64,000 bases of DNA, taken from the NCBI GenBank assembly GCA_963664325.2, contig CAXXDQ010000004.1, forward strand, positions 224,001 to 288,000, given 5' to 3'. This stretch comes from Desulfomonilia bacterium. GTDB taxonomy: Bacteria > Desulfobacterota > Desulfomonilia > UBA1062. Under the pieces are notes generated by a model that saw only the letters and a list, made by a program, of their open reading frames with translations, did no database searches and had not been told where the DNA came from. Below, in pieces: positions 6,611 through 37,761 of this stretch. Numbering within the stretch: position 1 is the stretch's first letter; each line of letters starts with the position of its first letter. A program made the translations under genes and the position numbers.

Positions 6611-8254
6611 CTATTCCCACATATCCGGCATGCCGAAGAAGTAATTGCTCGCACCGATATTCTCGACCGACGTGCCGCTGAACTCCAGGGCATAACTGTC
6701 TGCAATCCCCGATGTGTCCGGTTCGGTGTAGGGATCGGAGAGAAAATCAAAAAGGATGCCGACGCCGATATTCTCAGCCGCAGGCGTGATCCTGCCTTTT
6801 TCAGGGGAAAGGAAAACCACGCCGTGCGCCGCCCAGGGGATAGTGATGAAATACTGGTAAGGTCTGTTCAGGTATTGCCTTGCCCCCAGCGCAAGGGTGA
6901 GCGGTGTGTGTCCGTCTACCGTGCTGTTCATCATGAGTACAGGCCGGCTGTAATCAGGCCTTACGCCGATATAGTGGTCTATGTATGCAGGCCATGTTGT
7001 CCTGTCATATCCGATTCCCGCAATAACAGGGACAAGGTCCTCCGAAAGATAGGCGGCATCGGCAATCGTCTGGGCGGCCCAGGGCGAGATGCCGTTGTAA
7101 AGCTCGGAATTTGTGATGTTGGTGAAAAGCACCGAGGAGTAGAGCTTGTCCGCAGGTCTGAACTCTTCACCTGCGGCGTCTGACTCAACCAGGTCCGGAA
7201 AAAGATGGCCTATAGCGGCCTTATCGCTGTCGCTGCAGCGGTTAAGCCGGTAAATTACAGCCGGAACAAGAGCCCTGGTGTAAACTCCGTTTGCCAGGTA
7301 GGCGAGTTTTCCCCGCAAAGCCTTCCTTGAAATGCCTGCAAAATCCCCGCAGAGCTGTCCGCCGTCTATCTTCGTAAAAACTGCGGCCATTGCGTCCCAT
7401 GGATCAGGGGCGATACCGGAGAGCTTCGAGCTGCATGTGGCGTCGTTCGAGCACTGCTCCATGATCTGCATGCCTTCGTTGTTGAATTCGCTGTCATAGA
7501 CATCGAGCGGCTTTGAATCCGAGGGCACTATGGAATCGATTATCGTGCCGTCAACGCTGTCAGGATAAAGTGTCATAAAGCGCTGCACCAGATACGTGCC
7601 GTATGACACGCCGTATACGAAAACCTTGCCCTGACCCCTTGTAAGAGCAATCGCTGTCATGAGGTCCTTTGCAGCATTCGTTACGTTGAAATCGTCAAGG
7701 TCTCCTCCGATCAGACTCAAAACTTCGCTGCGGCATGCTGCTGCATTTTCAGGCGTCACGCCACCGTCAGGCGCCGCCTGCGGGCATTCCAGGCAGTTTG
7801 AGTTGCCGGTCCCCCTGTGGTCCATGGAATAATAATCCCATTCAGGATGCGCTGCGGCCAGAGGCGGCAGGAGATTGCCGAATGCAACGCTGGAGTCTCC
7901 GGGACCCCCCTGGAGAAACCATACCTGCCCTTTTTTCCGGTCATCCGGCAAAGAGCCTTTGATCCGCCAGATGAAGACATCGATCGTGCCTCCATAAGGT
8001 TTCTCATAATCCTTGGGCACGGTCACGAATGCACACTCTGCATCGCTGGATGTGTTTATGTAGTCAGGGCATGCGCCCCAGACGACTTCGGCCTGGTTTG
8101 TCTGGCTTGTCTGGTTTTCCGAAGATGAACTGCAGCCTGAAGCTGTCATGACGGTTGTATACATAACCATTAAAAATATCAGCGGCCCGAAGTTCAGCGC
8201 CGGTTTCTTCATGGATACCCCCTCTGTTATATATTTATACCTATCGTTTTTCAT
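6611..8254 (-). CDS. Alpha/beta-hydrolase lipoprotein, TAP-like peptidase
   Basis: Lipobox-like ASGC; LQGGPG, DHRGTG, GVSYG nucleophile elbow, C-terminal D...H. Confidence 0.8.
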   Translation of the reverse strand: MKNDRYKYITEGVSMKKPALNFGPLIFLMVMYTTVMTASGCSSSSENQTSQTNQAEVVWGACPDYINTSSDAECAFVTVPKDYEKPYGGTIDVFIWRIKGSLPDDRKKGQVWFLQGGPGDSSVAFGNLLPPLAAAHPEWDYYSMDHRGTGNSNCLECPQAAPDGGVTPENAAACRSEVLSLIGGDLDDFNVTNAAKDLMTAIALTRGQGKVFVYGVSYGTYLVQRFMTLYPDSVDGTIIDSIVPSDSKPLDVYDSEFNNEGMQIMEQCSNDATCSSKLSGIAPDPWDAMAAVFTKIDGGQLCGDFAGISRKALRGKLAYLANGVYTRALVPAVIYRLNRCSDSDKAAIGHLFPDLVESDAAGEEFRPADKLYSSVLFTNITNSELYNGISPWAAQTIADAAYLSEDLVPVIAGIGYDRTTWPAYIDHYIGVRPDYSRPVLMMNSTVDGHTPLTLALGARQYLNRPYQYFITIPWAAHGVVFLSPEKGRITPAAENIGVGILFDFLSDPYTEPDTSGIADSYALEFSGTSVENIGASNYFFGMPDMWE

Positions 8255-8594
8255 GCGTAATTCCTTAACATCTCCCCACCGTTGAGTTCCAACATGGGGA
8301 AAAAGAGAAGATTATTTTAAATGAGAGTTGAGTCATTTTCTTCAGCCACAGGACTAACGGTTACTATGAAGAGCCTCCCCCTTGGGGGTGCTGAGAAACT
8401 GAATGTCACCATATGTCATATGCGCTGATAGAACTGATTTGCAGATTCCACATAATGTCATGCAATCTTAATTTACCGTCAATGTGCATGCAGAGATACA
8501 AATTATAACGGCCCTGTCTCAGGTTTCTTTTCTTTTTTCAGATACAGCCCGGCCTGTAGTTTCCGTTACAAAACCCTGTTTACGCCCCTGCTAT

Positions 8595-10118
8595 TTATTG
8601 ATCAAGCATACCGCCACGGAGGCGGTAATATCTGGAAACCGATGAAACAGCGCGAAGCGCGTTTTTCACATCGTCAAATACAGGCATGCCTGCATCGGTG
8701 AACAGGCGGCGGGCCTCTCGGATGACCTCTTCGATCTCGATGGCGTCCTCCTCCTGCTTGTAGTTCGGCAGAACCAGCACAACAGGCTTTCCTCCCTTTT
8801 CGGCGGCATCCCGGCACGCTTCTGCGAATTCCTTGCACGGGGTCACGTCGCGGAGTCTGCCCGCGCCCATGGCGTTCTTAAGCGACTTGTAATGATAAAG
8901 GAGCATGATCACGATGTGAATGTCCACATTCTCGTCTCTCGCGGCGTTCATCAGGGCTTCCCTGATGCTTCCGGGCCCGACGAGGGGGTTCGCTACATCA
9001 ACGGGATTTGCGGCGCTGGAGCCGGGTCTGGGCAAAACCTTCAATATCTCATCCTGCAGGTCCTCCCTCAGCCTCGGCACGGCCAGGCCGAAAGATTCCG
9101 CCGCGTCGGCGGCCGCTATGCCCAGGGCCCCGCCCCCGCCCACGATACAGCATCCCGTATACTCGCGTTCAGGCAGCATGGAAAACGCCAGCGCCGCATC
9201 GCTCATCTCCTCCAGGTTCTCCACCAGGGTTGCGCGGCTTTGTCTGAGGGCCACCTCCCAGATGATCCTCTGTCCGCCGAGCGAGGCCGTGTGGCTTGCC
9301 GCCGCTCTGCTTCCTGATTCGGAAAGTCCGCCCTTTATCACGATGACAGGCTTGATTGCTGCCGTTTCCTTGAGCGCGGAAAAAAACGCGCGGCCGTTTG
9401 AGACCCCTTCGATATACATGCAGACCACTTTGGTCTCGCTGTCACGGCGCAGGTATTTCAGCATTTCGGTTTCCCTGAGGTCGCAGCCGTTTCCAAAACT
9501 TACGACCTTGGAAAATTTAAAACCCCGCCACTTTCCCATATGGCCGAAATCTACCGAAAGGCCGCCGCTCTGCGATAAAAATGCCACACCGCCGGTTTCC
9601 CTTGAAAGGTCGGGGCCGGGCAACATGGTGAGTCCCGATTTCGGGCAGTAGATACCGAAGCAGTTGGGTCCGATCACCCTGATCCCCTTTTCCGATACCG
9701 CGCGTAACCCCTCTTCGAGTGCCGTCCCTTCCCTTGTGCCTATCTCGCTGAATCCGGATGAAAGTATCTCGGCGGCCACGGCGCCCTTTTTCCGGCAGGC
9801 GTCGAGCGCCTCGGAGACGAACTGTGCGGGCACCGCGATTATGGCGAAATCGATCTTGTCCGGTATGGCCTCAACGGAAGGGTAAACGGTCATTCCACCG
9901 ACAGAGCCGCCCCGCCTGTTCACGGGATAAATCTTCCCGGCAAAGCCTATCGAGAGAAGTGAAAGCATAATGCCCCGGCCGAAACCGAATCCTTCCGTGG
10001 AGACCCCGACAATTGCAACACTCCCCGGGGAGAACATCCTTTCAAAATCCTCGAACTCTTCCGGCGCTGTCCGCGTAGCTAAAACATCCTCTCTGCCCAT
10101 AAGTATTTCACCTTTCAA
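8595..10118 (-). CDS. Acyl-CoA synthetase (NDP-forming), CoA-binding subunit
   Basis: IGPNCFG, SQSGG, SFGNGCD, SHT phospho-His, NPVD. Confidence 0.87.
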   Translation of the reverse strand: MKGEILMGREDVLATRTAPEEFEDFERMFSPGSVAIVGVSTEGFGFGRGIMLSLLSIGFAGKIYPVNRRGGSVGGMTVYPSVEAIPDKIDFAIIAVPAQFVSEALDACRKKGAVAAEILSSGFSEIGTREGTALEEGLRAVSEKGIRVIGPNCFGIYCPKSGLTMLPGPDLSRETGGVAFLSQSGGLSVDFGHMGKWRGFKFSKVVSFGNGCDLRETEMLKYLRRDSETKVVCMYIEGVSNGRAFFSALKETAAIKPVIVIKGGLSESGSRAAASHTASLGGQRIIWEVALRQSRATLVENLEEMSDAALAFSMLPEREYTGCCIVGGGGALGIAAADAAESFGLAVPRLREDLQDEILKVLPRPGSSAANPVDVANPLVGPGSIREALMNAARDENVDIHIVIMLLYHYKSLKNAMGAGRLRDVTPCKEFAEACRDAAEKGGKPVVLVLPNYKQEEDAIEIEEVIREARRLFTDAGMPVFDDVKNALRAVSSVSRYYRLRGGMLDQ

Positions 10119-22985: not shown

Positions 22986-24224
22986 ATGAAAGACCTTGAA
23001 AAACCATCGTGGAATTTCGATACGCTGTGCGTGCATGCGGGCGAGGGGGTGGACACCGATTCGCAGGCCATCAGAAGGCCCATACACATGGCCAATTCAT
23101 ACAAGCTCTCAACCGACCTGCTCGAACTCGTGGAACAGGTGACCTTCGACAGCCTCGACAAATTCAACTACACCAGAGAACACAACCCGACGGTCAGGCA
23201 TCTTGAAGAAAGGCTCGCCATGCTCGAGGGGGGCGAGGACTGCGTGGTCTCGGCCAGCGGCATGGGAGCCGTTTCCGCAACGCTCTTTACCCTGCTCTGC
23301 GCAGGCGATCACATAGTTGCTTCCGAGGTCTGCTATACCGGCTCACAGAAGCTCATCGGAAAAATGCTCCCCAGGTTCGGTATTGAAGTCTCCATGGTTG
23401 ACACGTCCGATGTGGATGAAGTGAGGCGCGCGGTAAGGAAGAACACAAAAGTCATCTATGTTGAAACACCGGCCAATCCCCTCGTGCTTATATGCGACAT
23501 AAGGGCGATCGCTGAAATAGCCCGTGAAGCAGGCGCCCTGCTGATAGTGGACAGCACATGGTCCGGCCTTGTAAACCAGAAGCCGCTCGAACTCGGCGCC
23601 GATGTCGTGATTCACAGCGCAACCAAATACATTAATGGCCACGGGGACTGTCTGTGCGGCGCCATCATAGGACCGGAGCAGCTTCTCAAGAAGATCCGCG
23701 AAGACGGCATTACGCACCTAGGCGCGTGCATCAGCCCGTTCAATGCCTGGCTGATCATGAGGGGTTCGGTCACACTGCCCCTGAGGATGGAAAGGCACTC
23801 GGCCAATGCGCAGAAGGTTGCCGAATTCCTGGCGATCCACCCGAAAGTGGATATGGTCCGCTATCCCGGCCTTAAAAGCCACCCTTCGTATAAGCTTGCA
23901 AAAAAACAGATGAAGGCGCCTTCGGGCATGATTAATTTCAACCTGAAGGCGGACATCATGGAGCACTTCGCTTTTCTTGACAGGCTGAAGCTCATCACCC
24001 ATGCCGTTTCACTCGGCCATGACCAGAGCCTGATTTATTACCTGCCGACCGGATTCTTCTTCGAGGAGATGGCTGTTTTTAATGACAGGCAGAAGCTCAA
24101 ATACCTCGGGCTTATGGGCGAGGGCATATACAGACTGAGCGTCGGGATTGAAGACGCGGCCGACATCATAACCGACCTTGCCCTGGCGCTTGAAGGGGTA
24201 AAGATCAGAGAGGAAGGCAGATGA
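22986..24224 (+). CDS. PLP-dependent Cys/Met metabolism enzyme (methionine gamma-lyase/cystathionine gamma-synthase family)
   Basis: YTR..NPT, SGMGA, ETPANP, HSATKYINGHGD, AVSLG, RLSVGIED. Confidence 0.88.
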   Translation: MKDLEKPSWNFDTLCVHAGEGVDTDSQAIRRPIHMANSYKLSTDLLELVEQVTFDSLDKFNYTREHNPTVRHLEERLAMLEGGEDCVVSASGMGAVSATLFTLLCAGDHIVASEVCYTGSQKLIGKMLPRFGIEVSMVDTSDVDEVRRAVRKNTKVIYVETPANPLVLICDIRAIAEIAREAGALLIVDSTWSGLVNQKPLELGADVVIHSATKYINGHGDCLCGAIIGPEQLLKKIREDGITHLGACISPFNAWLIMRGSVTLPLRMERHSANAQKVAEFLAIHPKVDMVRYPGLKSHPSYKLAKKQMKAPSGMINFNLKADIMEHFAFLDRLKLITHAVSLGHDQSLIYYLPTGFFFEEMAVFNDRQKLKYLGLMGEGIYRLSVGIEDAADIITDLALALEGVKIREEGR

Positions 24225-25629
24225 GCGGCAGGGGCCTGCCCTTAAAGACCAAGATCGGATACGGCGCGGCGGAGCTTTCTAATTCTCTCACCTGGACCAT
24301 GTTCTATGTCCTTTTCCTTTTTTTCCTGACTGACGTGGTCAAGATGGACCCGGCGTATGCCGGTTTTATAATGATGACAGGTACCGTATGGGACGCCTTT
24401 TCGAGCCCGCTTGTCGGTGTAATCTCTGACAGGGTGAAGTCAAAATGGGGCCGGAGACGGCCATTCATCCTTGGCACGGCCGTGCCCTTCGGGCTTATCA
24501 CGTGGCTTCTTTTTACGGATTTCGGGCTGTCTCCGGATATGACGAAGGCGTATTTCATTGCGGTTGTCATCTGCACGTTCACGGTATTTTCCTTTCTGGA
24601 CATTCCTTTGACTTCGCTCGCAGCCGAAATGACGCAGGATTATGACGAACGCACAAGTCTCATCAGCTACCGGGCGGTTTTCAGCCAGGTGGCATCCATC
24701 ACAGGCGCCGCCCTCCCATTTGTTCTCGTTGAGCATCTTACAAAGACGCTGGGCGCGGCCAAACCCGCTTGGTCCGTCATGACGGCCTTCATCGGGCTTT
24801 TCACCATATTCCCCATACTGATAACATGGCGGGCTACGCGAGGGACGGAGCTTTATCCGGGAAAACACGAGCATCTCCATAAGCGACATAAAAAACGCCG
24901 TCTTCAGCAACAGGACATTCAAATTTACGGTAGGCGTCTACACCTTCAGCAACGTGGCCTTAGGCATTGCGGGAGTAGTCATGGTCTATTTCATGCAGTA
25001 CTACATGCAGTTTACGGAGATGCAGAAATCGATCGCATTCCTGTTCCTGTTCGCATGCACGATCGTATGGATACCGCTGATAAACTACTTCTCCGCCAGG
25101 CTTTCAAAAACGCTGGGCGTTCATCATATTTATCGGCCTGTGGGCCCTTGTCCAGTCAATCGGGCGCAATACTTGTAAGGCCTGGAGATACTGTATATTT
25201 CTATGTCCTTGTGATACTGGCATCAGGCGGCCTGATAGGCGTCACCATGGCCGGCTGGGCGATGATACCCGATGTAAGTGGAGGTTGACGAATATAAAAC
25301 GGGGACAGAGGCGCGAAGGACTTTATTACGGAATATTCAGCTTTTCAAGAAAGGTCGCTGTTGCGCTTGCGGTCTGGCTGGTTGGAATAATACTATCCGG
25401 AGTTGGCTATGCCCCGAACGCGGTTCAGGACAAAAGAATCCCTGCTGGGCATAAGGCTTATCTATGCAGAGGGGACGGCGTTTTTTTCCTTTTTGCAAGC
25501 CTGATCATGGCATACCTGCTGCCTATGACCAGGAAAAGGCATGAGGCGCTTGCCGAAGCGATCAGGCTCAAAAAGGAAGGAACGGCCACTGACGAGGAAG
25601 AAAATCAAAATTTTGCTCTAGTTTTTTGA
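24221..25629 (+). pseudogene. GPH-family MFS transporter broken by multiple frameshifts (probably sequencing errors)
   Basis: KIGYG, SDR..SKWGRRRP, WAMIPDV and GQRREGLYYG are split across frames; shifts fall mostly at homopolymers from about 24860 to 25490. Confidence 0.75.
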
Positions 25630-27081: not shown

Positions 27082-28950
27082 TTATTTAAGCTTATCCTGC
27101 ACTATCTCAATATTGTGCTTTTTCTTTGCACTTTTTATAAAATCTTCAAATGCGGCATCTTTATCCTTTTTCAGGAGATCGGCCTTGATTAAATATGCCT
27201 TTGCCGGGTTCAGGCCTGAAGGGTCGGCTTTGACAAACTGATTGAGCCAAACCACACAGGTCCGGCCTTCGACCGTATAAGACTTTGGAACATTGAGGCT
27301 GTCCAGATCGTCCTTGAGTTTTGCATCACCGCCGAGCTTAGGAATTACGCCTTCCGAGCGTTTGAATATGCCCGTAGTTTCGTGAGACATCGCATTAAGG
27401 GCATTGGCCCCTTTTGACGAAAGCTGGCTTGCATAAGCTTTTGCAGCTTCGACTGCCTTTTCCCTGGAGGAATCGGCAATGACCCTTTCTCTGACCTCGT
27501 TAAGCTCCGGTATCCTGGCGTTGATTCTGCCGGTCACCTTGTACACCATGTAGCCGGTGCCGGTATCGATGACATCTCCGAGATCGCCTTCCTGCCTGGG
27601 TACAGCGTCTTTGATGACCTTGGCGCCCATGGGTATTGCGATCTGCTCGTTTTCCGCAAACGGGCCGAATTCCTTCAGCTCAAGCCCTTTCTTCTTTGCA
27701 TAAGCGGCGATGTCGGATTTGGGGTCTTCGAATATGGCTGAAAACGCATTCTGGGAATCGGCATATGCCTTGTCCTTGGAAATTCTGGCTGTAAGTTTCT
27801 CCTTGATCAGGGGTTCAACTTCTTCAAACGGTTTGACCTTTTCGTCAATTTTCGCATCAAGTTTCACTATCCTGAAGCCCATGGGGGTGCGCAGGGGGCC
27901 TTTAACTTCTCCGGGTTTCATCGACAGGAGGGTATCTCCAAGCCCTTCCGGCAGTTTATCTTTTTCCACCATGCCAAGGTCGCCGCCGTTCTTTGATGTC
28001 GCAGGGTCCTGGGAAAACTTTCTGGCGAGTCCGGCAAAGTCCGCTCCCTTCTTTGCCTCGTCAACAATCTTCTGTGCCTCCTGTTGTTTTTCCTTCATCA
28101 TCTTCTCGTCAGTCTTCCTGGGCGCAAGGATCAGAATCTCCCTTCCGTGAACCTTTGCCGGTATTGTGTATTCCGACAAATGGTCGTTATAATAATCCTT
28201 CTTGTCCTTGTCCGGTATGTTCACCGACTGGGCATATTGCACGGTTTCGAACATAATATAGGATATCTTGGTCTTGGGCGGGACCTTGTATGACTCCTTG
28301 TGCGACTCATACCAGGCCTTGATTATCGCATCATCGACTTTAACGCCCGATCTGAACTGGTCGGGGGTAAAACATATGAAATTAAGACTCATCGCGTCTT
28401 CTTTCTGATGGTATGCCGCCTCGATTTCCTTCTTTGATATATGAACGTTATCCGTAACTATGCTCATAAGCCTCTGCCTGATCATCTCGTTTCTCTGCTG
28501 GTCTTCAAACTCCGAAGGCGTAACCTTGAGATAACCCAGTATCTGATTGTATTTATCCATATCAAAGCTTCCGTTCGTCGTAAAAACGGGCAGCTTTCTT
28601 ATGGAATCCTGAAGGTCTTCGGTTGTAATCCTGATCCCCATCTTGTCGGCCTCAAGCTGCATGACATAGTTGTTGATGAGCTGGTCAAGCACCTTGTTTT
28701 TCAGATCCAGAATCTTGATCATCTCTTCATTGAAGAAATTGCCATACTGCTGGCGGTATGCATCGATTGTATTATCATAAGCCTTCCGGTATTCCTGATC
28801 GGATATTATATGCTTATCGATCTTGGCTACCTTGCTGCTTTCACGATTGAGATATGAACTTCCTCCCCATGCGACAAAGGTTAAGATAATCGCCCCGAAA
28901 ATGATCTTTATCATCCAGCCTTTGGAATGCTTCCTCATGTAACTCAGCAT
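27082..28950 (-). CDS. ppiD: PpiD-like periplasmic chaperone / parvulin PPIase
   Basis: N-terminal membrane anchor, SurA-like domain, FAGLARKFSQDP...GGDLG; 622 aa. Confidence 0.82.
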   Translation of the reverse strand: MLSYMRKHSKGWMIKIIFGAIILTFVAWGGSSYLNRESSKVAKIDKHIISDQEYRKAYDNTIDAYRQQYGNFFNEEMIKILDLKNKVLDQLINNYVMQLEADKMGIRITTEDLQDSIRKLPVFTTNGSFDMDKYNQILGYLKVTPSEFEDQQRNEMIRQRLMSIVTDNVHISKKEIEAAYHQKEDAMSLNFICFTPDQFRSGVKVDDAIIKAWYESHKESYKVPPKTKISYIMFETVQYAQSVNIPDKDKKDYYNDHLSEYTIPAKVHGREILILAPRKTDEKMMKEKQQEAQKIVDEAKKGADFAGLARKFSQDPATSKNGGDLGMVEKDKLPEGLGDTLLSMKPGEVKGPLRTPMGFRIVKLDAKIDEKVKPFEEVEPLIKEKLTARISKDKAYADSQNAFSAIFEDPKSDIAAYAKKKGLELKEFGPFAENEQIAIPMGAKVIKDAVPRQEGDLGDVIDTGTGYMVYKVTGRINARIPELNEVRERVIADSSREKAVEAAKAYASQLSSKGANALNAMSHETTGIFKRSEGVIPKLGGDAKLKDDLDSLNVPKSYTVEGRTCVVWLNQFVKADPSGLNPAKAYLIKADLLKKDKDAAFEDFIKSAKKKHNIEIVQDKLK

Positions 28951-29062
28951 CAGTTTCTCCCTTAATGTTTATTGCAATTCTGGCAAAAGATAGATGAATG
29001 GGGCATATATTTCAAGTAAAGATTACTTTATTGAAAACTGATTCAATAATTATTAACAAAAT

Positions 29063-29653
29063 TCACTCGATTGATGCCTTTTCCACCCAGACGAGCTCGC
29101 ATGCGCCCCTGCCCGTATCGGTTCTTGAAAGAGAGCTCTGCCATGTCATTCCGCCCTTGCCTGTAACGCTGACCAGATAGCCTTCCAATGTGATAAGCTG
29201 ACCCGGCCTGACCGTAAAAAGTGTCCTTCGGATATATTTGTTTGCCGGTATCATGTGCATGTTCGAAGCATTGGCACATATCTGTTCGTACGGTATCGGC
29301 AAATTCCCGTCCGTTTCCCAGTAAAAAAATCTGGCCATCTGGCTGATTTTCAGTTTATTCAGTACCGCTTCATCAGACATCGGACCCCACCCGAGGGCAA
29401 GGTCGATCGGGCTTAACCCGGCGCCGGGGTCAAAACGGTATCTCTTTCTTGAGAGCACCCTGGCCTTGAGCCTGAAGGATGCGAGCGGTTTTATCGTATA
29501 ATCTTTGAACTGAAACGGGCCGGCGTCCTTGAGGGCCTCCTGAAGAGGGGCGTCGGGCGCAATGATGCCGTCCCCATGATGCACAGGCCTGTGGGAGCAC
29601 CAGGAAAAAAAGCCGGCCAGGGCTATAACGGCGATTGCAATATATTTCCACAT
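29063..29653 (-). CDS. Hypothetical exported protein
   Basis: N-terminal hydrophobic segment; SPIDLALGWG, NMHMIPA, SRTDTGRGACE motifs. Confidence 0.7.
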   Translation of the reverse strand: MWKYIAIAVIALAGFFSWCSHRPVHHGDGIIAPDAPLQEALKDAGPFQFKDYTIKPLASFRLKARVLSRKRYRFDPGAGLSPIDLALGWGPMSDEAVLNKLKISQMARFFYWETDGNLPIPYEQICANASNMHMIPANKYIRRTLFTVRPGQLITLEGYLVSVTGKGGMTWQSSLSRTDTGRGACELVWVEKASIE

Positions 29654-29805
29654 TGTGCCTTATGGCGGGACATCGCGTCCCGTTTTATCCCCCCGCAATA
29701 TTTAATCCCGCATTTCATACAGCAACGGCTCTGCCTTGGGAAGAAAATACCGCCAAGTGTCCGCAGTGCGCTGCGGCGGCTATACCGCTCCGCCGCCAGC
29801 GAACC

Positions 29806-32027
29806 CGATTAATCCTTTATTCATCAAGGTTTAGATTCTCACGCTAAATTAATATTGTGACAGAACTCGTCACAAAAAATCTATGTCTCAATCCTTTATT
29901 CATCAAGGTTTAGATTCTCACGACACTAACGAATTGCACCTTTCCCATGCTTAATCAGGATTCGTCTCAATCCTTTATTCATCAAGATAGTGGTTCTCCC
30001 CACATAAAACACTATTTCAAACCACAGGCGCAAGAGGTTTCCACATCTCAATCCTTTATTCATCAAGGTTTAGATTCTCACCTGTCAATGGCAGTTTATT
30101 GGATTTAATGTGCGGACCTGGATAGTCTCAATCCTTTATTCATCAAGGTTTAGGTTCTCACTGCAGCACGAAGCCGAGCTGCAAGACCTGATAGACGGGG
30201 CGGTCTCAATCCTTTATTCATCAAGGTTTAGGTTCTCACAATCCATTCAGGAAGCGGTCGGAAGATTTCTTCATGAAGTGGTCTCAATCCTTTATTCATC
30301 AAGGTTTAGATTCTCACTACTTCTTGAAAAGTGAGGAAATGGGGATAAGCGAAGAGGAAGTCTCAATCCTTTATTCATCAAGGTTTAGATTCTCACGATA
30401 AAACCCTCACCGGCACGGAACAGGAATGCATAGTCTCAATCCTTTATTCCTCAAGGTTCAGGTTCTCACTGAGATCGAGGAGCTCCACGGGAAAGTGACA
30501 AAAGATGTCAAGGTTTCAATCCTTTATTCATCAAGGTTCAGGCTCTCACTCGACGTAAAATACGGCAGCGGGAAAACAATATTTATGGAAAATTGGTCTC
30601 AATCCTTTATTCATCAAGGTTTAGATTCTCACGGTTAACACTCGGATGATACCGCAGCCAAAAGTAAATCAGTCTCAATCCTTTATTCATCAAGGTTCAG
30701 GTTCTCACGCCGAGAGCTATGTAAAGGAGAACCGTTAACAAGGATACTCAGAGTCTAAATCCTTTATTCATCAAGGTTCAGATTCTCACGCGGGCAGGTG
30801 ACAACTTATTATTCGCTTAAAGGTACTTTTATGTCTCAATCCTTTATTCATCAAGGTTTAGATTCTCACGAATGATTTAATCGTAGAACTTTTGAGGATA
30901 TCAGGTGAGAAGCGTCTCAATCCTTTATTCATCAAGGTTCAGATTCTCACGGATAGAATTATGTCAGACGCAATACCAACCCGGGGAGTGAAGTTTCAAT
31001 CCTTTATTCATCAAGGTTTAGATTCTCACGCAGAAAAAATAACGGTTATACGGTTTTACTGGCAAACGTGTCTCAATCCTTTATTCATAAAGGTTCAGGT
31101 TCTCATATCCAAAGATTTGCGAGGCAATCAGCGACGAGAAAAGAATGTCTCAATCCTTTATTCATCAAGGTTCAGATTCTCACAGGTAAATTTGCTGCTG
31201 CGAAAAAGCTTGAGCGATATCCGGTCTCAATCCTTTATTCATCAAGGTTTAGATTCTCACTCACACGCCAGTTTATATCAATGACCGAATTCATGAAATT
31301 TTAGTCTCAATCCTTTATTCATCAAGGTCTAGATTCTCACCAACTGGCAAAGTCGCAATGTTTCCCGGAAATAGTTATGTCTCAATCCTTTATTCATCAA
31401 GGAAATGGTTCTCACGGAAACAAAGGTGATACTGGTCCTAAAGGTGATACGTCTCAATCCTTTATTCATCAAGGTTTAGATTCTCACAAATTAACCATCC
31501 CGCCGCAGCTCAAGGCTATAATAGGAGAGTCTCAATCCTTTATTCATCAAGGTTCAGATTCTCACTCAAAAAAATTGTGGGCCAATGTGCGTATTTTCTT
31601 CAAAGTCTCAATCCTTTATTCATCAAGGTTAAGGTTCTCACGGCGGCAGTAATAGTGTACGCCGTCTATATTTTCAAATCTTCGTCTCAATCCTTTATTC
31701 ATCAAGGTTTAGATTCTCACTAAAAATCTTGAAGGAGAGAGGCTATGAAAAAAAGCTGCATTATCGTCTCAATCCTTTATTCATCAAGGTTTAGATTCTC
31801 ACGTAAACTTATTATCGGTTGATCTTTGGGAGCATCGAAACAGGTCTCAATCCTTTATTCATCAAGGTTCAGGTTCTCACTCATTTATAACCAATAGTTC
31901 TAGTTGTGCATATATGTCTCAATCCTTTATTCATCAAGGTTCAGGTTCTCACTACTATCGTCCGGATATCGGCACGCCTGGTTCGATTCTGTCTCAATCC
32001 TTTATTCATCAAGGTTCAGGTTCTCAC
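29806..32027 (-). CRISPR. CRISPR array 1: 29 repeats, 28 spacers
   Basis: 37-bp repeat, + strand GTCTCAATCCTTTATTCATCAAGGTTYAGRTTCTCAC. On the minus strand it has a CCTT/AAGG hairpin and ends ATTGAGAC. Spacers 35-46 nt; degenerate terminal repeat at 29806. Confidence 0.97.
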
Positions 32028-32190
32028 GGTTGTTTCATTTTTACCCTTAAATACATGAACTTACAACCGGCTTTTCTGTAAGGTCTTATTTTCCCGGTCA
32101 AGGGACAGTATAAATTCATATGTTTTCCTCTTGTCAAAGAACAGATGTTTATCTGTTTTCAAAGAGTTAGGTGTATTTCTGTAACCTACC
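32028..32190 (-). promoter_or_regulatory. Leader of array 1
   Basis: AT-rich; first ~115 nt closely match the array 2 leader; minus-strand TTGACA (32132-32137) and TATACT with a long 19-nt spacing; IHF-like TTTCAAAGAGTTA at 32157-32169. Confidence 0.8.
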
Positions 32191-32220
32191 CCTTTTTTCA
32201 GCCGTTTTGAAAGCTCCGTA

Positions 32221-32493
32221 TCAGAGTATATACACGTCCTTGTCCTGCATCACTTCTCCGTGTCCCAGAACCTCAATCGTCTTTTCACAGGCCCGGCAAA
32301 TGACGTATATCCTCAGACTGCCTTCCTCTTCCACAAGACCCGCCACCCGGTGTTTTAACTCACTCAACTGCCCTTCATCCATGCGGCACTCGAATACACT
32401 ATATTGAACCCTGGAACCGTAATCAAGAAGGTCCTTGGCTAACTTAGTCCGGCGGGAGTCATCAACTACATCATAGGAGACGATATAAAGCAT
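32221..32493 (-). CDS. cas2: CRISPR-associated Cas2
   Basis: MLYIVSYDV, YGSRVQYSVFEC, SLRIY.IC..C; lies between the two arrays. Confidence 0.95.
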   Translation of the reverse strand: MLYIVSYDVVDDSRRTKLAKDLLDYGSRVQYSVFECRMDEGQLSELKHRVAGLVEEEGSLRIYVICRACEKTIEVLGHGEVMQDKDVYIL

Positions 32494-32495
32494 GC

Positions 32496-32525
32496 TCAAA
32501 CCTCAAGCCGGAACGGCGTATACAC
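32496..32525 (-). pseudogene. Possible 3' remnant of cas1
   Basis: Reads V-Y-T-P-F-R-L-E-V-stop, with the stop 2 nt before the cas2 ATG, like a Cas1 C-terminus at a cas1-cas2 junction. Confidence 0.45.
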
Positions 32526-32545
32526 CGCTCCGCTGCCAGTAGTCC

Positions 32546-33286
32546 CGATTAATCCTTTATTCATCAAGGTTTAGATTCTCACTGGAAAGGCGGAAACACC
32601 AGACGAAAAGGCTTTTTGGGCGTCTCAATCCTTTATTCATCAAGATTTAGATTCTCACGGCGTGAAAAGCAAGGAGTACTTGCAGGATCTTGTCAGGGTC
32701 TCAATCCTTTATTCATCAAGGTTCAGGTTCTCACATTATTACCGACTGGAATATGCCAGAGAATAATGGTCTTTTGTCTCAATCCTTTATTCATCAAGGT
32801 TTAGATTCTCACCGATAGATGAATTGGTGTTCTTGGGTTGCGCCAGAATAGTCTCAATCCTTTATTCATCAAGGTTCAGATTCTCACGGCAGAAAGAAGT
32901 TCAGCGCATGATCAACTCGAAAAGTTTGCGTCTCAATCCTTTATTCATCAAGGTTCAGATTCTCACTCGGCATCACGATAAACACACATCAGCAGGAACA
33001 GTGGATTAAGTCTCAATCCTTTATTCATCAAGGTTCAGGTTCTCACTCCTATGACCAGGTCCTGCAGATGAGAAAAGATAACGAATTCTAGTCTCAATCC
33101 TTTATTCATCAAGGTTCAGGTTCTCACCTAGCAAGAAAAATATACGATCTTCATGCAATGAGAAGTGGTTGGTCTCAATCCTTTATTCATCAAGGTTTAA
33201 ATTCTCACTTTACTATCGTCCGGATATCGGTAGTCCCACGCAGATAGAAGTCTCAATCCTTTATTCATCAAGGTTTAGATTCTCAC
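32546..33286 (-). CRISPR. CRISPR array 2: 10 repeats, 9 spacers
   Basis: Same 37-bp repeat family; same degenerate terminal repeat (CGATT instead of GTCTC) as array 1. Confidence 0.97.
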
Positions 33287-33404
33287 GGTTGGTTCATTTT
33301 TGTCCTTAAATACATGAACTTACAACCGGCTTTTCTGTAAGGTCTTATTTTCCCTATGATCGGGCCGTATAAATTCATCTATTTTTCTTTTGTCAAAGAG
33401 CAGG
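33287..33404 (-). promoter_or_regulatory. Leader of array 2
   Basis: Near-copy of 32028-32145, including CCTTAAATACATGAACTTACAACCGGCTTTTCTGTAAGGTCTTATTTTCCC and TTGACA. Confidence 0.8.
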
Positions 33405-33483
33405 TTAAATGATTAACCTTTAAATAATCTTTTATACTACCGTTTGTATAAATTACTTAGACTGTATCATTCTAATGTCACTC

Positions 33484-34488
33484 TTACTTTAAATACTGCA
33501 TTTCTTTCGCAAGTGTAACAGCCAGTTTGCTTGGATCATCTTTACTATAAATCACTATTCTCAGATGGCGTAAATCAAAAGGGATGTTATTGATATCTTG
33601 AGCCAGCATGATTACTTGTTTTCCATAAGCATGGGCTATACCAAGTTCATAATAGACATTTGGATTTTTTTGAGTCAATTCCACTACAACAATATTTGCT
33701 TTAAGAAGATTCTCCCTTATTCTATTCATTATGCCGCCAGTAAAAATTTCCTCATCCACACGAACGCATCTCTTGGACATGCTCTCAGTCGCAAACTTAA
33801 TGCCTTTTTCATAAACCTCTGTAAATTGATCTGAGAATGGCATGATAACAAACACCAAGTCTTTCTCAACTTGTGGTTTTCCTTTATCTAAGCGCACGAG
33901 GGTTTCTGTTCCAGGGATCGGATATAATGTTTCTTCATCGTAATCTACACGCAAATAAAAAGCATCTATATCATCAAATGAAAAGGATGCATTGTATGCT
34001 CCTATTGACATTGGCTTGGTTCCTCCGGTCAGATCGATAGCCATTTGCCTTTGGGAAAGCCCTTCTCCTGCACTTATCTCTTCTACCCATTCAACGATTT
34101 TTTCTTCCATCAATTTTTGATCTTCACTCTGAATGATCATTTCCCGAATTTTTACATTCAGATTAACTTTCCGAATACACTCCTTAATTTGAGTTAAATG
34201 CATTCGATGAAAATGTTTTGATATCTCACTGAAAGCCAATGTAAGATAATCAGGTTTAAAAAGGCCTGCCATTATAACAACGTTTTCCATTGAAAATCCC
34301 ACTGGTATAAATAGAGCTGGATATTTCGGGCGGCCTCCTTGATCAAGCTCTATTCCGTGATCATGAGCTCGTTTGGAAACCACGCTAAGCGATTTATTGT
34401 AAATCTCGTCAAAATAAAACTTAGGGTCGTAATTCTTCTTTTTCCAAATATCAAAAAGACCTTTGAAAATCTTGTAATCATATTCCAT
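33484..34488 (-). CDS. CARF domain fused to a nucleoside 2-deoxyribosyltransferase-like/TIR-like domain; putative cOA-activated effector
   Basis: CARF motifs LFIPVGFS and IDLTGGTKPMS, PIPGTE linker; C-terminal VFVIMPF...NPNVYYELGIAHAYGK...PFDL. Confidence 0.85.
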   Translation of the reverse strand: MEYDYKIFKGLFDIWKKKNYDPKFYFDEIYNKSLSVVSKRAHDHGIELDQGGRPKYPALFIPVGFSMENVVIMAGLFKPDYLTLAFSEISKHFHRMHLTQIKECIRKVNLNVKIREMIIQSEDQKLMEEKIVEWVEEISAGEGLSQRQMAIDLTGGTKPMSIGAYNASFSFDDIDAFYLRVDYDEETLYPIPGTETLVRLDKGKPQVEKDLVFVIMPFSDQFTEVYEKGIKFATESMSKRCVRVDEEIFTGGIMNRIRENLLKANIVVVELTQKNPNVYYELGIAHAYGKQVIMLAQDINNIPFDLRHLRIVIYSKDDPSKLAVTLAKEMQYLK

Positions 34489-34500
34489 TTCTCTCCCCTT

Positions 34501-35391
34501 TTATGCAAATGTTGATATCTTTTCTTTAAGGACTACTGCAAAATCTTCACCTTTCACTTTGTTATTCTTCATTTCCTTCAAGTCATCTATATCTACTATT
34601 AGTATCAGCCTTGCCTCCGTTCCTATTTGTCTGTAGAATATTTTTCTAAGTAATTCCCAAATGGGATCGTTTTTCCCGGGCATAGTCCTGCAAATCAATA
34701 GAGTGAGCGGCACGTTTGACAACACTGTATCCTGAAAGTACAAAGTATATTTGAAGCATTGCATAAGATCATTAGTAACAGGTTTCTTGTTTTTGCACTC
34801 TACAATCAGTCTGTTGAACTTGTAGCCAACTCGTATAGCTGGTTCAAATTGATCCCGTAATCTTTCTCTTATTTGATAACAGCCATCTAATTTTAAGTTT
34901 CGACTTCTCCATTGAGGAGGATCAATCCGAATCAATTCTTCTTGAAATAAACAATCAAAAAAATAGATCACATAACTTTCAAATATTTTGCCATCTTCGC
35001 GATGTCCCAAAGGGGCAGTTTTGACTTTATCAAATGCATCCTCTACTTGTTGATTCACAAAACCACATGCAAGATCAAAATCATAAAGAATACTATCTAC
35101 TTTTTTTTGTATTCGTTGGAACAATTGCTTAGTTTTCTCAGGGTTCAATGTGAATCTTTGTATAAGGACTTCAACTTCTGCCATTTTATTATTTAATCGT
35201 TCAGTAGTAATTTTAAAGTTTTTAAAACAAGACATTGCACTAATAGGTTCTTTCAACATACTTCGATATTGTTCTACAGCTTTTGAACAACCACATTCTT
35301 CCAGACTCTCTCGAAAGATGTTTATTAGTTCAATTTCATGCTGATTTAAATCAGCTAAATACCTTTCTATGAAAACATCATTAGCTTCCAT
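34501..35391 (-). CDS. Putative PD-(D/E)xK (Mrr-like) endonuclease with N-terminal helical domain
   Basis: GKIFE, LDG, IVECKN and QxxxY (QCFKY) in the C-terminal half; in the operon directly after csm4. Confidence 0.7.
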   Translation of the reverse strand: MEANDVFIERYLADLNQHEIELINIFRESLEECGCSKAVEQYRSMLKEPISAMSCFKNFKITTERLNNKMAEVEVLIQRFTLNPEKTKQLFQRIQKKVDSILYDFDLACGFVNQQVEDAFDKVKTAPLGHREDGKIFESYVIYFFDCLFQEELIRIDPPQWRSRNLKLDGCYQIRERLRDQFEPAIRVGYKFNRLIVECKNKKPVTNDLMQCFKYTLYFQDTVLSNVPLTLLICRTMPGKNDPIWELLRKIFYRQIGTEARLILIVDIDDLKEMKNNKVKGEDFAVVLKEKISTFA

Positions 35392-35409
35392 AGGACCTCT
35401 ATATTCTCA

Positions 35410-36360
35410 TCAATCAGTTTTTTCAGCTAACTCAATCATCATTCCCAATCCATTTCGGAATACTTTATGTTCCTCAATAAAATCTTTGGGGGTTACATCT
35501 AATAATTGTCCCAAAATTGATTGTCTAAATAGAGATCCTTCTGAGAACATATGGCATTTTCTTCTTTTCATTTGTTTTATCGATGAATTCGAAAATATCC
35601 ATCCACCCCGCGAAAGAATACTATAAGATAGTGCATGCTGGGCTTCAGTCTCTTTAGGACAACAAAGTGAAAGCGTGTAATAGTATTTATCATCGGCTAT
35701 CTTTGTTTCAAACAATTCGGTCCACGTAGTGAGATCATCAACCTGCTTGAACTCGGCTGTATAATGACCATAACCTATACTTCTATCCCCACCGATCCCG
35801 CTTTCACCGAGTAACCGAATACAGAGTTCCAACTTTTCTCTCAAGGTAGTATCTTTCAGGTTTATCAAGAAATAGAGTCCTCCACCTTCTTTTATTGTTG
35901 TGCCTTTTTCCTCGAAAATGTTTGTTGATTTTGTGATCCTGTCGATAGTGACCCTTGGGCTTATAAAACCATTAATTAATCTAGGAAGAGGATTTATGAT
36001 ATCTTTATTTGCAATTCTTTCCTGGTTGCCTCTAGCCAAATTATTAAAATCAGAAAGCTCTAAAAATGGGATTTCCTTGAGCTTCTCAGCGTACAAAGTA
36101 CCAGTGCCATATGGTGTTGGAAGGTAGTACTCGTCGAGATAATAGGGGAAAGCTGAGGAAATAGTTAAACAAGGGGGGTTCTGCTGCATATCAGAAATTA
36201 AAGACGAAATTGATTTATCATTTGAAACTCTAACCCATTCGTTAAATATACCACTGAATAATGTATCAGAATGGATTATTCCAACAGATTCTTTCTCAAA
36301 AATATCTGCCGTTCTAATTTTAACAGCCCGATTGAACTTGAGCTTGGCCAGCAACAGCAT
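35410..36360 (-). CDS. csm4: Type III-A Csm4 (Cas5 group)
   Basis: IHSDTLFSG, ISSAFPY, PRVTIDR, GIGGDRSIGYG, RGGW, FSEGS. Confidence 0.93.
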   Translation of the reverse strand: MLLLAKLKFNRAVKIRTADIFEKESVGIIHSDTLFSGIFNEWVRVSNDKSISSLISDMQQNPPCLTISSAFPYYLDEYYLPTPYGTGTLYAEKLKEIPFLELSDFNNLARGNQERIANKDIINPLPRLINGFISPRVTIDRITKSTNIFEEKGTTIKEGGGLYFLINLKDTTLREKLELCIRLLGESGIGGDRSIGYGHYTAEFKQVDDLTTWTELFETKIADDKYYYTLSLCCPKETEAQHALSYSILSRGGWIFSNSSIKQMKRRKCHMFSEGSLFRQSILGQLLDVTPKDFIEEHKVFRNGLGMMIELAEKTD

Positions 36361-36367
36361 ATTCTGA

Positions 36368-37255
36368 TTACCCTTTCAGGAAGTTGATGATCGGGTCTAT
36401 TTTATTTCTAGCATCAGAGATAGAAATATTGGTGTCAACTGTACCATATTCTTTGGAAGTGTCTCCTTGGAAATATGCCAAACTACGGGCTACAAAGTTG
36501 GTAAGTTTGAATTCTATCTTCCCATACCCCCGCGAAGTGTACCCACCCAAACCTTCATTTTGTATGAGTTCCATGGCCGTTAACAGATTGTTCAGGTCTT
36601 TTTTCAGTATCTGTTTATCTAAAGAGTAGTTATCTTTTCCTGTAATCCTAACATTCTCCACCGAATAAACCATTTCAAAGATGAACCTGTTTTCAGGTAG
36701 AACTCGTTCAACTCTCCTAGGATTGGCTGACATACTTATGCGGTCTATGCCTGTCTCTACCTTAACCTCTGTGAATTGAGGATTATCGCCGAAAAGGCTC
36801 GTATCTATTAGTGCATCTCTTACTGTTAGCAGGGCAGGCCAGTTTTCTGCCTTTTGATCTTTTCGCGATGCTCTATCATCTCTTATGGGTATATCATACC
36901 CGCTTGATCCGAAAACTCTGCAAACATCACATGCTATCGCATATTTAACATCATCACAGCAATGAACTAAAACTCTGTTTCTTAAGGTGCCTATGTTCCT
37001 ATTAGAGGTAAGTGTTTCAACTTTATTGTCCTTAGTACGATAGCCGAACTTTTCAAATGTGCTCCGAAGCTTTCCTTTAAGAGAACTCCCTGGAATGTAA
37101 GGCAGATTATTACCCGAATCCCTGAGAACTGGCAAATCGATGCCACCAATTTGCATCGATTCTTGCGAGCCCCCTATGTGCAGACCTGTCTTTAGTACGA
37201 TGTTGCCCCTAATAAATATTTTACCGATAAGATGTCTCTGACCTCGTTCACTCAT
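36368..37255 (-). CDS. csm3: Type III-A Csm3 (Cas7 group RNase)
   Basis: TGLHIGG, catalytic Asp in IGGID.PV.RD, PYIPGSSLKGKLRS, CDVCRVFG, IDR, GLGGYTSRGYG. Confidence 0.95.
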   Translation of the reverse strand: MSERGQRHLIGKIFIRGNIVLKTGLHIGGSQESMQIGGIDLPVLRDSGNNLPYIPGSSLKGKLRSTFEKFGYRTKDNKVETLTSNRNIGTLRNRVLVHCCDDVKYAIACDVCRVFGSSGYDIPIRDDRASRKDQKAENWPALLTVRDALIDTSLFGDNPQFTEVKVETGIDRISMSANPRRVERVLPENRFIFEMVYSVENVRITGKDNYSLDKQILKKDLNNLLTAMELIQNEGLGGYTSRGYGKIEFKLTNFVARSLAYFQGDTSKEYGTVDTNISISDARNKIDPIINFLKG

Positions 37256-37275
37256 TATCTGAAACCTCCCTTATT

Positions 37276-37761
37276 TTAATTTCCGCCACAATACTTATGA
37301 TATGCTACAATAGCCTCGGAAAAACGGCATAACCTCTCGTAGTCCTCTATACTTGTAACACAATCCAGCAGAGGATTTATCACTTCAAAGAAAGGAGAAA
37401 CCTCATTTGGCTGCCTAGCCTTTGCATTGGCAAGTTGCGGTTTAAGCATGAAAATTTCAGGCAGTACCTTTTCTTGAAATAGCTCCGTTGCATTGGGCAT
37501 AAGACGAATGCTTAATATAGTAGCTTTAATGTTCAAAAGGGACTCATAGAACCTTCGAAGTTGTGCTGCCTTCAGTCGTACATCATAGCTAGCGAGTAGT
37601 TTGCCAAGGGCAAAGCTACACACTACTAGCTTTTCTGAAGGGAGCAAACTCCTAACTGTTGGCCTCTCCGAAGCACCTTCAAATATCTTATTTTTGATTG
37701 AGATTGCTTCTTTGAGACCCCATTCCTCACAAAGCCTCTCTTCCATTGATTTTGTAGTCAT
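37276..37761 (-). CDS. csm2: Type III-A Csm2 (Cas11 small subunit)
   Basis: QLRRFY, LKPQLA...AR, FSEAIVAYHKY; overlaps the cas10 stop. Confidence 0.92.
   Translation of the reverse strand: MTTKSMEERLCEEWGLKEAISIKNKIFEGASERPTVRSLLPSEKLVVCSFALGKLLASYDVRLKAAQLRRFYESLLNIKATILSIRLMPNATELFQEKVLPEIFMLKPQLANAKARQPNEVSPFFEVINPLLDCVTSIEDYERLCRFSEAIVAYHKYCGGN

Follow-up and report, generated by a model that had tools for sequence, protein, structure and literature searches.

The 64,000-nucleotide window analysed here (the whole stretch taken from contig CAXXDQ010000004.1 of Desulfomonilia bacterium assembly GCA_963664325.2) carries on its minus strand a gene at 33484..34488, stop codon included, whose product joins an N-terminal CARF sensor to a C-terminal domain resembling nucleoside 2-deoxyribosyltransferases (NDTs). 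It is the last gene of a tightly packed minus-strand type III-A CRISPR-Cas operon with the order cas6-cas10-csm2-csm3-csm4-X-fusion, in which X is an orphan in the csm5 slot. The combination of the two domains in one protein, and its place in a type III-A locus, is real and well supported. According to the open reading frame (ORF) list of the window, the fusion protein has 334 aa and an ATG start codon; the initial annotation had given exactly these coordinates, and all the motifs that it quoted are found in the translation.

Three parts of the protein can be distinguished. A two-helix extension (residues 1–54, 34327..34488), visible in the secondary structure of the model, has the family-conserved positions W15, Y25, F26 and F30. 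It is followed by the CARF domain (residues ~55–200, 33889..34326) and by an NDT/DNPH1-like flavodoxin-fold domain of the DrHyd type (residues ~205–334, 33487..33876), all on the minus strand. The AlphaFold model of the whole protein, built on an alignment of 63 full-length family sequences (alignment A1), has a pLDDT of 91.1, and that of the C-terminal domain alone (residues 203–334) a pLDDT of 95.2 and a pTM of 0.89. The motifs LFIPVGFS (59–66), DLTGGTKPMS (152–161) and PIPGTE (190–195) lie in the CARF half, and VFVIMPF (212–218), RVDE (243–246), NPNVYYELGIAHAYGKQVI (275–293) and PFDL (303–306) in the C-terminal domain; they are invariant or almost so in alignment A1.

The locus has the genes of a type III-A system, cas10, csm2, csm3, csm4 and cas6, together with CRISPR arrays. 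On the minus strand, cas6 (40206..41264; Pfam CRISPR_Cas6 E 1.9e-21, PADLOC Cas6 E 7e-111) is followed by cas10/csm1 (37727..40120; Pfam palm2 E 3.3e-30 and Csm1_B, PADLOC Cas10 E 4.6e-93), csm2 (37276..37761; Pfam Csm2_III-A E 1.9e-21, PADLOC Csm2 E 1.2e-20), csm3 (36368..37255; Pfam RAMPs E 4.2e-21, PADLOC Csm3 E 3.5e-54) and csm4 (35410..36360; Pfam Csm4_C E 3.6e-24, PADLOC Csm4 E 8e-46). The Cas10 translation contains the GGDD cyclase motif. No Pfam HD family matches Cas10 at E ≤ 0.01, and in PADLOC its alignment to the Cas10 model does not begin before model position 83. Neither Pfam nor PADLOC detects another cyclic oligoadenylate (cOA)-responsive effector in the locus, and the genome, 95.6% complete, has a single Cas10 and a single CARF_Card1-type protein, which is the fusion. 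The type III-A system of this locus probably depends on signalling.

The sensor half is a genuine CARF domain of the Cam1/Csm6-like kind, as the initial annotation had proposed from its motifs. Pfam PF23400 (CARF_Card1) matches residues 97–191 with 27.7 bits against a cut-off of 24.6 (E 3e-6). The fusion protein is matched by 44 PADLOC models; nearly all of the 25 matches listed are CARF models, the best being CARF1--CARF_HEPN (E 2.9e-14). Foldseek, which the initial annotation had named as a check on both halves, found a Rossmann-like CARF fold in the modelled sensor half, with Cam1 at the top (8t65, E 5.7e-9, TMt 0.77) and Csm6 (TtCsm6), Can2, Cdn1, Cad1, Csa3 and Crn1 among the further matches. 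The CARF motif residues are G64, D152-x-T-G-G-x-K158 and G193-x-E195. In a sequence alignment, A-I-D-L-T-G-G-T-K158-P-M-S and P-G-T-E195 line up with the motifs of Cam1 and TtCsm6, with K158 opposite TtCsm6 K137, and D152, T154, G155, G156, K158, G193 and E195 are invariant in 63/63 sequences of alignment A1. Because this CARF domain most resembles those of Cam1 and TtCsm6, our guess for the likeliest ligand is cyclic tetra-adenylate (cA4). The outputs of the two relatives differ from that considered here, Cam1 forming a membrane pore and Csm6 carrying a HEPN RNase.

For the C-terminal domain, sequence comparisons point to the NDT/DNPH1 enzymes. The family profile matches DNPH1/Rcl among Protein Data Bank (PDB) chains at E 1.2e-4, and E281 falls opposite the Glu of their Y-E-L-G motif. 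No TIR or Cat1 chain was found at E ≤ 10 in the PDB sequence searches, either with the single sequence or with the family profile, and no Pfam TIR family matches the fusion protein at E ≤ 0.01. PF05014 (Nuc_deoxyrib_tr) passes the Pfam cut-off in 7 of 10 relatives of the domain and also in P0123 (37.2 bits), and it is matched at E ≤ 1e-3 in 102 of 130 carriers of the domain that have no CARF. TIR_2 occurs in only 2 of these 130, and in one of them, P0084, it is a separate N-terminal domain. The sole TIR label on the fusion protein comes from the PADLOC model PDLC00733 ('Effector', 'TIR'; residues 251–311, E 1.9e-6). This model has 388 positions, of which the C-terminal ~120 match the enzyme half of the fusion and likewise 9/10 and 10/10 other carriers of the domain; its N-terminal ~250 positions have no match in the fusion protein. 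A full-length PDLC00733 member was found in 0 of 301 genomes, in a survey whose control was itself found in 0 of 14, and the model, judging from neighbouring accessions, appears to belong to the PADLOC set of effectors of CBASS (cyclic oligonucleotide-based antiphage signalling systems).

In structural comparisons the picture is broader. In Foldseek, TIR domains stand level with DNPH1 and NDT for this half. When the Foldseek list was realigned with VIA-align, DNPH1 came first (Z 15.2, root-mean-square deviation (rmsd) 2.4 over 123 aa, 20% identity), followed by the SPARTA TIR domain (Z 14.8, 11% identity), MilB (Z 14.6, 17%) and other TIR domains (Z 13.5–14.2); BcmB gave Z 13.6. A VIA search independent of Foldseek, covering 48,161 chains and with rows within 1 Z counted as ties, put MilB at the top (14.6), then TIR-STING (14.1), Hydra TIR (14.0) and the NDTs (13.3–13.4); Cat1 (9mud_K) reached Z 11.8 at 9% identity and TIR-SAVED (7qqk) Z 10.2. 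The modelled domain thus has the five-stranded flavodoxin-like fold of DNPH1, MilB and the NDTs, and it is also TIR-like, with Z 13.5–14.8 against the SPARTA, STING, Hydra, SARM1 and RUN1 TIR domains. Since the Z scores lie within 1, fold alone does not tell the NDT type from the TIR type. Sequence, unlike fold, places the domain with NDT/DNPH1 rather than TIR. The description of this half as NDT/TIR-like in the initial annotation is borne out by these comparisons.

The putative active site was compared between 98 CARF-fused and 213 non-fused copies of the domain. E281, where the helix following strand 3 begins, is aligned with E104 of DNPH1, the YELG Glu, and is kept in 98/98 fused and 195/213 non-fused copies. 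The other conserved positions, with the numbers of fused and non-fused copies that keep them, are F213 (98 and 188), P217 (97 and 204), R243 (98 and 188), D245 (96 and 188), N275 (97 and 181), N277 (98 and 194), G283 (98 and 211), K290 (98 and 182), D305 (95 and 192) and Y314 (96 and 206).

The VIA alignments start at model residue 5 against DNPH1 18, at 8 against Rcl 10 and at 6 against MilB 12, so that F213 (model residue 11) stands opposite DNPH1 Y24, Rcl Y13 and MilB F17, presuming an ungapped strand 1. The catalytic triad of DNPH1 is reported as Y24, D80 and E104 (PMC10603095), and F17 of MilB is reported to make room for ribose, with F17Y reverting the preference to deoxyribose (PMC10603095, PMC4081090). 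Since F213 sits where MilB has its ribose-selecting Phe and DNPH1 has Tyr24, we predict that the fusion family acts on ribo-substrates and not on 2'-deoxyribose ones. Of the substrates named in the initial annotation, (deoxy)nucleotides or NAD+, the deoxynucleotides are disfavoured by this invariant Phe, and the ribonucleotides and NAD+ are retained.

A word-indexed homologue search returned 170 proteins at E ≤ 1e-3. Eighty clusters (P0002–P0081, 39–65% identity) either match over both halves or represent parts of proteins that do; some are fragments, and none bears an informative name. The named sources are metagenome-assembled genomes (MAGs) of Thermodesulfovibrionales, 'Candidatus Wunengus californicus' and an unclassified bacterium. 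The CARF half was found in 1 of 41 genomes among relatives and in 1 of 401 in a phylum sample, each time in the own genome of the fusion; the two samples overlap. A metagenome-contig search with the CARF half gave 144 pattern matches and two confirmed loci (L082 and L083), which count as one independent locus because they are 100% identical over 8,713 bp. This locus carries the same operon, including a homologue of X, and an array with a related repeat. At 8002–9501 (+) of L083, after the CRISPR array, lie a CBASS-type oligonucleotide cyclase (E 6.1e-87) and NucC (E 6.4e-100), and two more repeat-like matches are seen beyond this pair, at 9640 and 9722.

The C-terminal domain has a far wider distribution, with 18,806 representative clusters at E ≤ 1e-3 and 6,264 at 1e-10. 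A genome-contig search with A1 gave at least 589 pattern matches, at least 537 of them confirmed, and the best 80 cover the C-terminal domain only (query residues ≥169). Among plasmid (0/74) and phage (0/18) records none covers ≥80% of the fusion protein, the matches being to the C-terminal domain. The phage matches (H13–H22) have this domain alone, at 31–40% identity, in 18 phage records, 16 of them of Staphylococcus phages, and it is annotated as 'hypothetical protein' wherever the record is annotated. In the 130 non-CARF carriers the fusion partners are modules of the receiver and switch kind, namely REC (13), sigma54-AAA+ (9–10), DUF4062 (6) and GAF (4), followed by EAD7/8 and PAS. Many relatives (proteins P0124–P0161) hold two tandem NDT-like domains, often behind a response-regulator receiver domain, and the tandem copies may correspond to an NDT dimer formed within one chain. 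In a FastTree tree of 307 domain copies, 97/97 CARF-fused copies fall into one clade together with the 127-aa P0134 (support 0.81); the tree is unrooted, and its sample was chosen by similarity to the query. One clade of CARF-fused copies fits a single fusion event.

The second unusual component of the operon is X (34501..35391, minus strand), a 296-aa protein located between csm4 and the fusion gene. No significant family was found for it in Pfam, PADLOC or NCBIfam, and its profile gave only coiled-coil noise against the PDB. A helical N-terminal part of ~125 aa is followed by a set of motifs like those of PD-(D/E)xK enzymes, with D146, E152, D169 and E198-C-K200 invariant, and there is a weak Atlas lead to Mrr_cat (0.89). 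The invariant residues and this lead together suggest that a PD-(D/E)xK nuclease follows the helical N-terminal part. A 289-aa homologue occupies the matching position in L082 (39% identity, E 2e-68), and in a MAG an X homologue lies beside a fusion homologue (adjacent locus tags AB1422_01070 and AB1422_01075). Six X homologues were found in all, against about 80 clusters for the fusion. Csm5 was not detected above cut-off in the whole genome, where TIGR01899 gives only 18.5 bits, inside csm3. X could replace Csm5, act as the nuclease for the missing HD domain or be a partner of the fusion. The complex predicted from the alignments of the fusion protein (A1) and of X (A3) scored 0.00 in both runs, which were made without controls, and this score speaks on neither side as to binding.

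Downstream of the operon lie two CRISPR arrays and a cas2 gene, all on the minus strand. Array 1 (32546..33286), directly downstream of the fusion gene, has 10 repeats of 37 nt, and array 2 (29806..32027) has 29 repeats of the same sequence; both were found in repeat scans. Between them is cas2 (32221..32499; Pfam CRISPR_Cas2 E 3.5e-24, PADLOC Cas2 models), which is solitary: no Cas1 (PF01867) was detected in the genome, although the two arrays together contain 37 spacers. The same leader-like sequence is present at the high-coordinate end of both (32060–32100 and 33310–33350) and a degenerate last repeat at the low-coordinate end; on this basis the arrays are read on the strand of the cas genes. 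The common leaders and degenerate end repeats suggest that an array with its leader was duplicated around cas2. The CRISPR-cas block (~30000–40000) has a GC content of 36–40% compared with 51–55% in the flanks, and this compositional island is consistent with horizontal acquisition. Rfam gave no family over 28000–45000, and a scan for promoters and terminators was at background (22 found, 25.8 expected).

Several neighbouring ORFs should also be noted. Just upstream of cas6 is an SNase homologue (41412–41906, minus strand; Pfam SNase E 3.9e-25, PADLOC 'C3a212 SNc+LTD' E 2.7e-19), adjoined by a weak alpha/beta-hydrolase ORF (41903–43072, minus strand); neither was found at the corresponding position in L082. 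A 196-aa ORF just past the distal array (29063–29653, minus strand) has no match in Pfam (E ≤ 1) or PADLOC. On the plus strand, the overlapping ORFs 24221–25288 and 25285–25629 match positions 1–199 and 348–421 of the MFS_2 model and may represent one transporter gene that was split or has a frameshift.

Among characterised effectors, Cat1 offers the nearest parallel in outline. It is described as a TIR-N/CARF-C protein of 258 aa that is activated by cA4, forms filaments and cleaves NAD+ (PMC12162218). Both proteins join a CARF sensor to a Rossmannoid domain of the TIR/NDT class and are found in type III loci. We rejected membership of the Cat1 family: the domain order is reversed, CARF-N/enzyme-C in a protein of 334 aa, no Cat1 chain is matched by sequence at E ≤ 10, and the Cat1 TIR domain (PDB 9MUD, 9MW9) superposes on the C-terminal domain with Z 11.8 and rmsd 2.1 over 111 aa at 9% identity. 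DNPH1, MilB and the NDTs come closer to the domain than Cat1 does (Z 14.6–15.2, 17–23% identity). The initial annotation had made the novelty of the protein depend on its not clustering over the full length with a characterised effector such as Cat1. By this analogy the fusion would work like Cat1 in outline, with a CARF sensor and an output of the N-glycosidase class, while standing outside the Cat1 family.

Other known systems share one half or the other. With DNPH1/Rcl, MilB/BcmB and the NDTs (PF05014) the fusion has in common the flavodoxin-like fold (Z 13.3–15.2) and a Glu in the Y-E-L-G context, and with MilB also the Phe at the F17 position. Those proteins are stand-alone metabolic enzymes without a sensor domain, whereas the C-terminal domain of the fusion is part of a distinct clade of very large size, whose members occur in proteins built for signalling and conflict. 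The retron Eco1 (Ec86) has an NDT-like N-glycosidase that is described as a dimer with the catalytic Glu E106 and as a hydrolase of NAD(P)+ (PMC12673091 and the preprint 10.1101/2023.08.16.553469); the preprint reports a depletion of adenine derivatives. As published, here too a domain with the NDT fold serves defence as a toxic effector, restrained by reverse transcriptase and msDNA (multicopy single-stranded DNA) and not by a cyclic nucleotide. A retron N-glycosidase chain is absent from the matches listed in the PDB sequence, Foldseek and VIA searches, an absence limited to those lists. TIR-SAVED (Cap12) and TSR1 are described as combining a cOA sensor with an NAD+-depleting domain in CBASS and some type III loci (PMC11229360, 10.64898/2026.09.16.751991). 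They differ in having a SAVED and not a CARF sensor, a canonical N-terminal TIR domain and a filament or dimer driven by cyclic tri-adenylate (cA3). DrHyd domains were predicted by Aravind and colleagues, without experiment, to be NAD+-targeting effectors (PMC9503650, PMC7159879). We found no paper on a CARF-NDT fusion in the literature; the architecture may be listed in the CARF census (Makarova et al. 2020) or in the supplements of Altae-Tran 2023, a paper that mentions CARF and TIR just in the legend of a figure.

On the basis of these comparisons, we propose that the fusion, a rare architecture, is an ancillary effector of the type III-A system and that it probably halts the growth of infected cells, with NAD+ or another ribonucleotide as the molecule destroyed. 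In this model, the encounter of the Csm complex with a target transcript would lead Cas10, through its GGDD motif, to synthesise cOA, which would sit in the CARF dimer via D152-x-TGG-x-K158 and G193-x-E195. Binding would join or re-orient the two NDT-like domains and so complete an active site around E281, the presumed counterpart of the nucleophilic Glu of DNPH1, MilB and the NDTs. The activated enzyme would then cut the N-glycosidic bond of an abundant ribonucleotide, with growth arrest and a block of phage propagation as the outcome. We consider it somewhat better than an even chance that the fusion, once activated by cOA, acts as an N-glycosidase on a ribonucleotide, for which NAD(P)+ is the likeliest candidate; it is favoured because of the analogy with Cat1, TIR-SAVED and the Retron-Eco1 N-glycosidase.

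Several points weigh against this proposal. PF05014 matches residues 253–301 of the fusion with 19.9 bits, below the cut-off of 28.8 (E 8.5e-4). On the models, the NDT-type and TIR-type fits are tied, and the fold alone would leave the chemistry unfixed. The catalytic Tyr of DNPH1 and the NDTs is absent, with F213 at the Y24 position as Phe in 98/98 fused copies. The hidden Markov model alignment places I257 opposite Asp80 of DNPH1, the conserved acidic candidates being D245 and positions 255 and 270, and it aligns the phosphate-binding Ser98 with N275; substrate handling would therefore be unlike that of every characterised relative. DNPH1 and MilB, the best-scoring of these relatives, use nucleoside monophosphates (NMPs) and not NAD+, and no gene related to NAD+ or ADP-ribose (Nudix, Macro, SLOG) was seen in the locus. 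On the sensor side, Cam1 structures have been solved with both cA4 and cA6 (cyclic hexa-adenylate), so the choice among cA3, cA4 and cA6 is a guess. Genomic context is available for two independent loci only, plus one locus-tag adjacency.

The preference of DNPH1 and MilB for NMPs leads to a second candidate function, in which a cOA-activated N-glycosidase of the MilB type would strip the base from NMPs or nucleoside triphosphates (such as AMP/ATP or CMP) and deplete nucleotides or energy while sparing NAD+. The closest characterised relatives, DNPH1, MilB and BcmB by structure and DNPH1/Rcl by profile, are NMP N-glycosidases, and a Phe at the MilB F17 position suits ribonucleotides. Against this, the phosphate-binding Ser (DNPH1 S98, MilB S97) is aligned with N275, and the stretch after strand 1 reads M-P-F-S in the fusion, where a Gly/Arg-rich loop follows strand 1 in DNPH1. 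As to tested defence effectors, those of this fold class are reported as NAD(P)+ hydrolases (PMC12162218, PMC12673091). In favour, the preprint on Ec86 describes a loss of adenine derivatives (10.1101/2023.08.16.553469). We regard an NMP- or NTP-directed enzyme as possible but doubtful. The top rank of DNPH1/Rcl by both sequence and structure would also suit a hydrolase of 2'-deoxynucleotides whose effect is to deplete dNMPs or to break down modified deoxynucleotides of phages, for example 5-hydroxymethyl-dUMP (hmdUMP); here the Tyr that handles deoxyribose is replaced by Phe in all fused copies, and the reported effect of Phe and of F17Y in MilB (PMC10603095, PMC4081090) makes a deoxynucleotide substrate very improbable.

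Two further possibilities concern the role of the domain in the operon. The cOA-triggered NDT-like domain might be a signal converter, making a second molecule (an ADP-ribose derivative or similar) that activates X in a two-tier cascade. X is the neighbour of the fusion gene both in the window and in L082/L083, and in the MAG with adjacent locus tags; it has the invariant D169 and E198-x-K200, and TIR/DrHyd domains have been proposed as signal generators (PMC9503650, PMC7159879). X has no ligand-binding domain recognisable by Pfam, PADLOC, NCBIfam or the PDB profile, its few homologues compared with the fusion clusters mean that it may go with a sub-clade only, and from the csm5 slot it may be a subunit of the Csm complex or an HD-replacing nuclease, which leaves such a cascade quite improbable. 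A two-protein relay in which the N-glycosidase product, of the ADP-ribose type or a base-free nucleotide, controls X by a chemistry unlike that of the TIR NADases and of DNPH1/MilB is, in our estimation, unlikely. The C-terminal domain could also be non-toxic, as a nucleotide-binding or regulatory module, or the protein could serve chiefly as a cOA sponge or ring nuclease and so adjust the signalling to another effector. Its CARF domain is similar to that of TtCsm6, which degrades cA4. The TIR/DrHyd/SLOG class has members that can act as sensors without catalysis (PMC9503650). The near invariance of the nucleophile Glu and of a dozen polar positions speaks for catalysis, and the locus, with no other cOA-responsive effector and no detected Cas10 HD domain, would then have an output only possibly in X; we give a non-toxic role very little credence.

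Known outputs activated by cOA in type III systems are an RNase, a DNase, a pore, a protease, a deaminase and a TIR NADase, and each was a notable discovery. If the fusion is an N-glycosidase as proposed, its family would add the NDT/DNPH1 type to this set, an output chemistry that is not conceptually surprising after Cat1 yet is unstudied. The operon also offers, in the csm5 slot of a Csm system without a detected HD domain, an orphan with nuclease motifs; were the relay between the fusion and X to exist, a second messenger would be passed on within a type III CRISPR system. The invariant replacement of Tyr by Phe gives a clear prediction of ribo-specificity. More broadly, the fusion links CRISPR signalling to a huge and almost wholly uncharacterised clade of domains that recur behind REC, GAF, PAS, sigma54-AAA+ and EAD modules and are labelled 'hypothetical' on plasmids as well as phages. 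Knowing the substrate of a single member that cOA can switch would open up the whole NDT-like clade.

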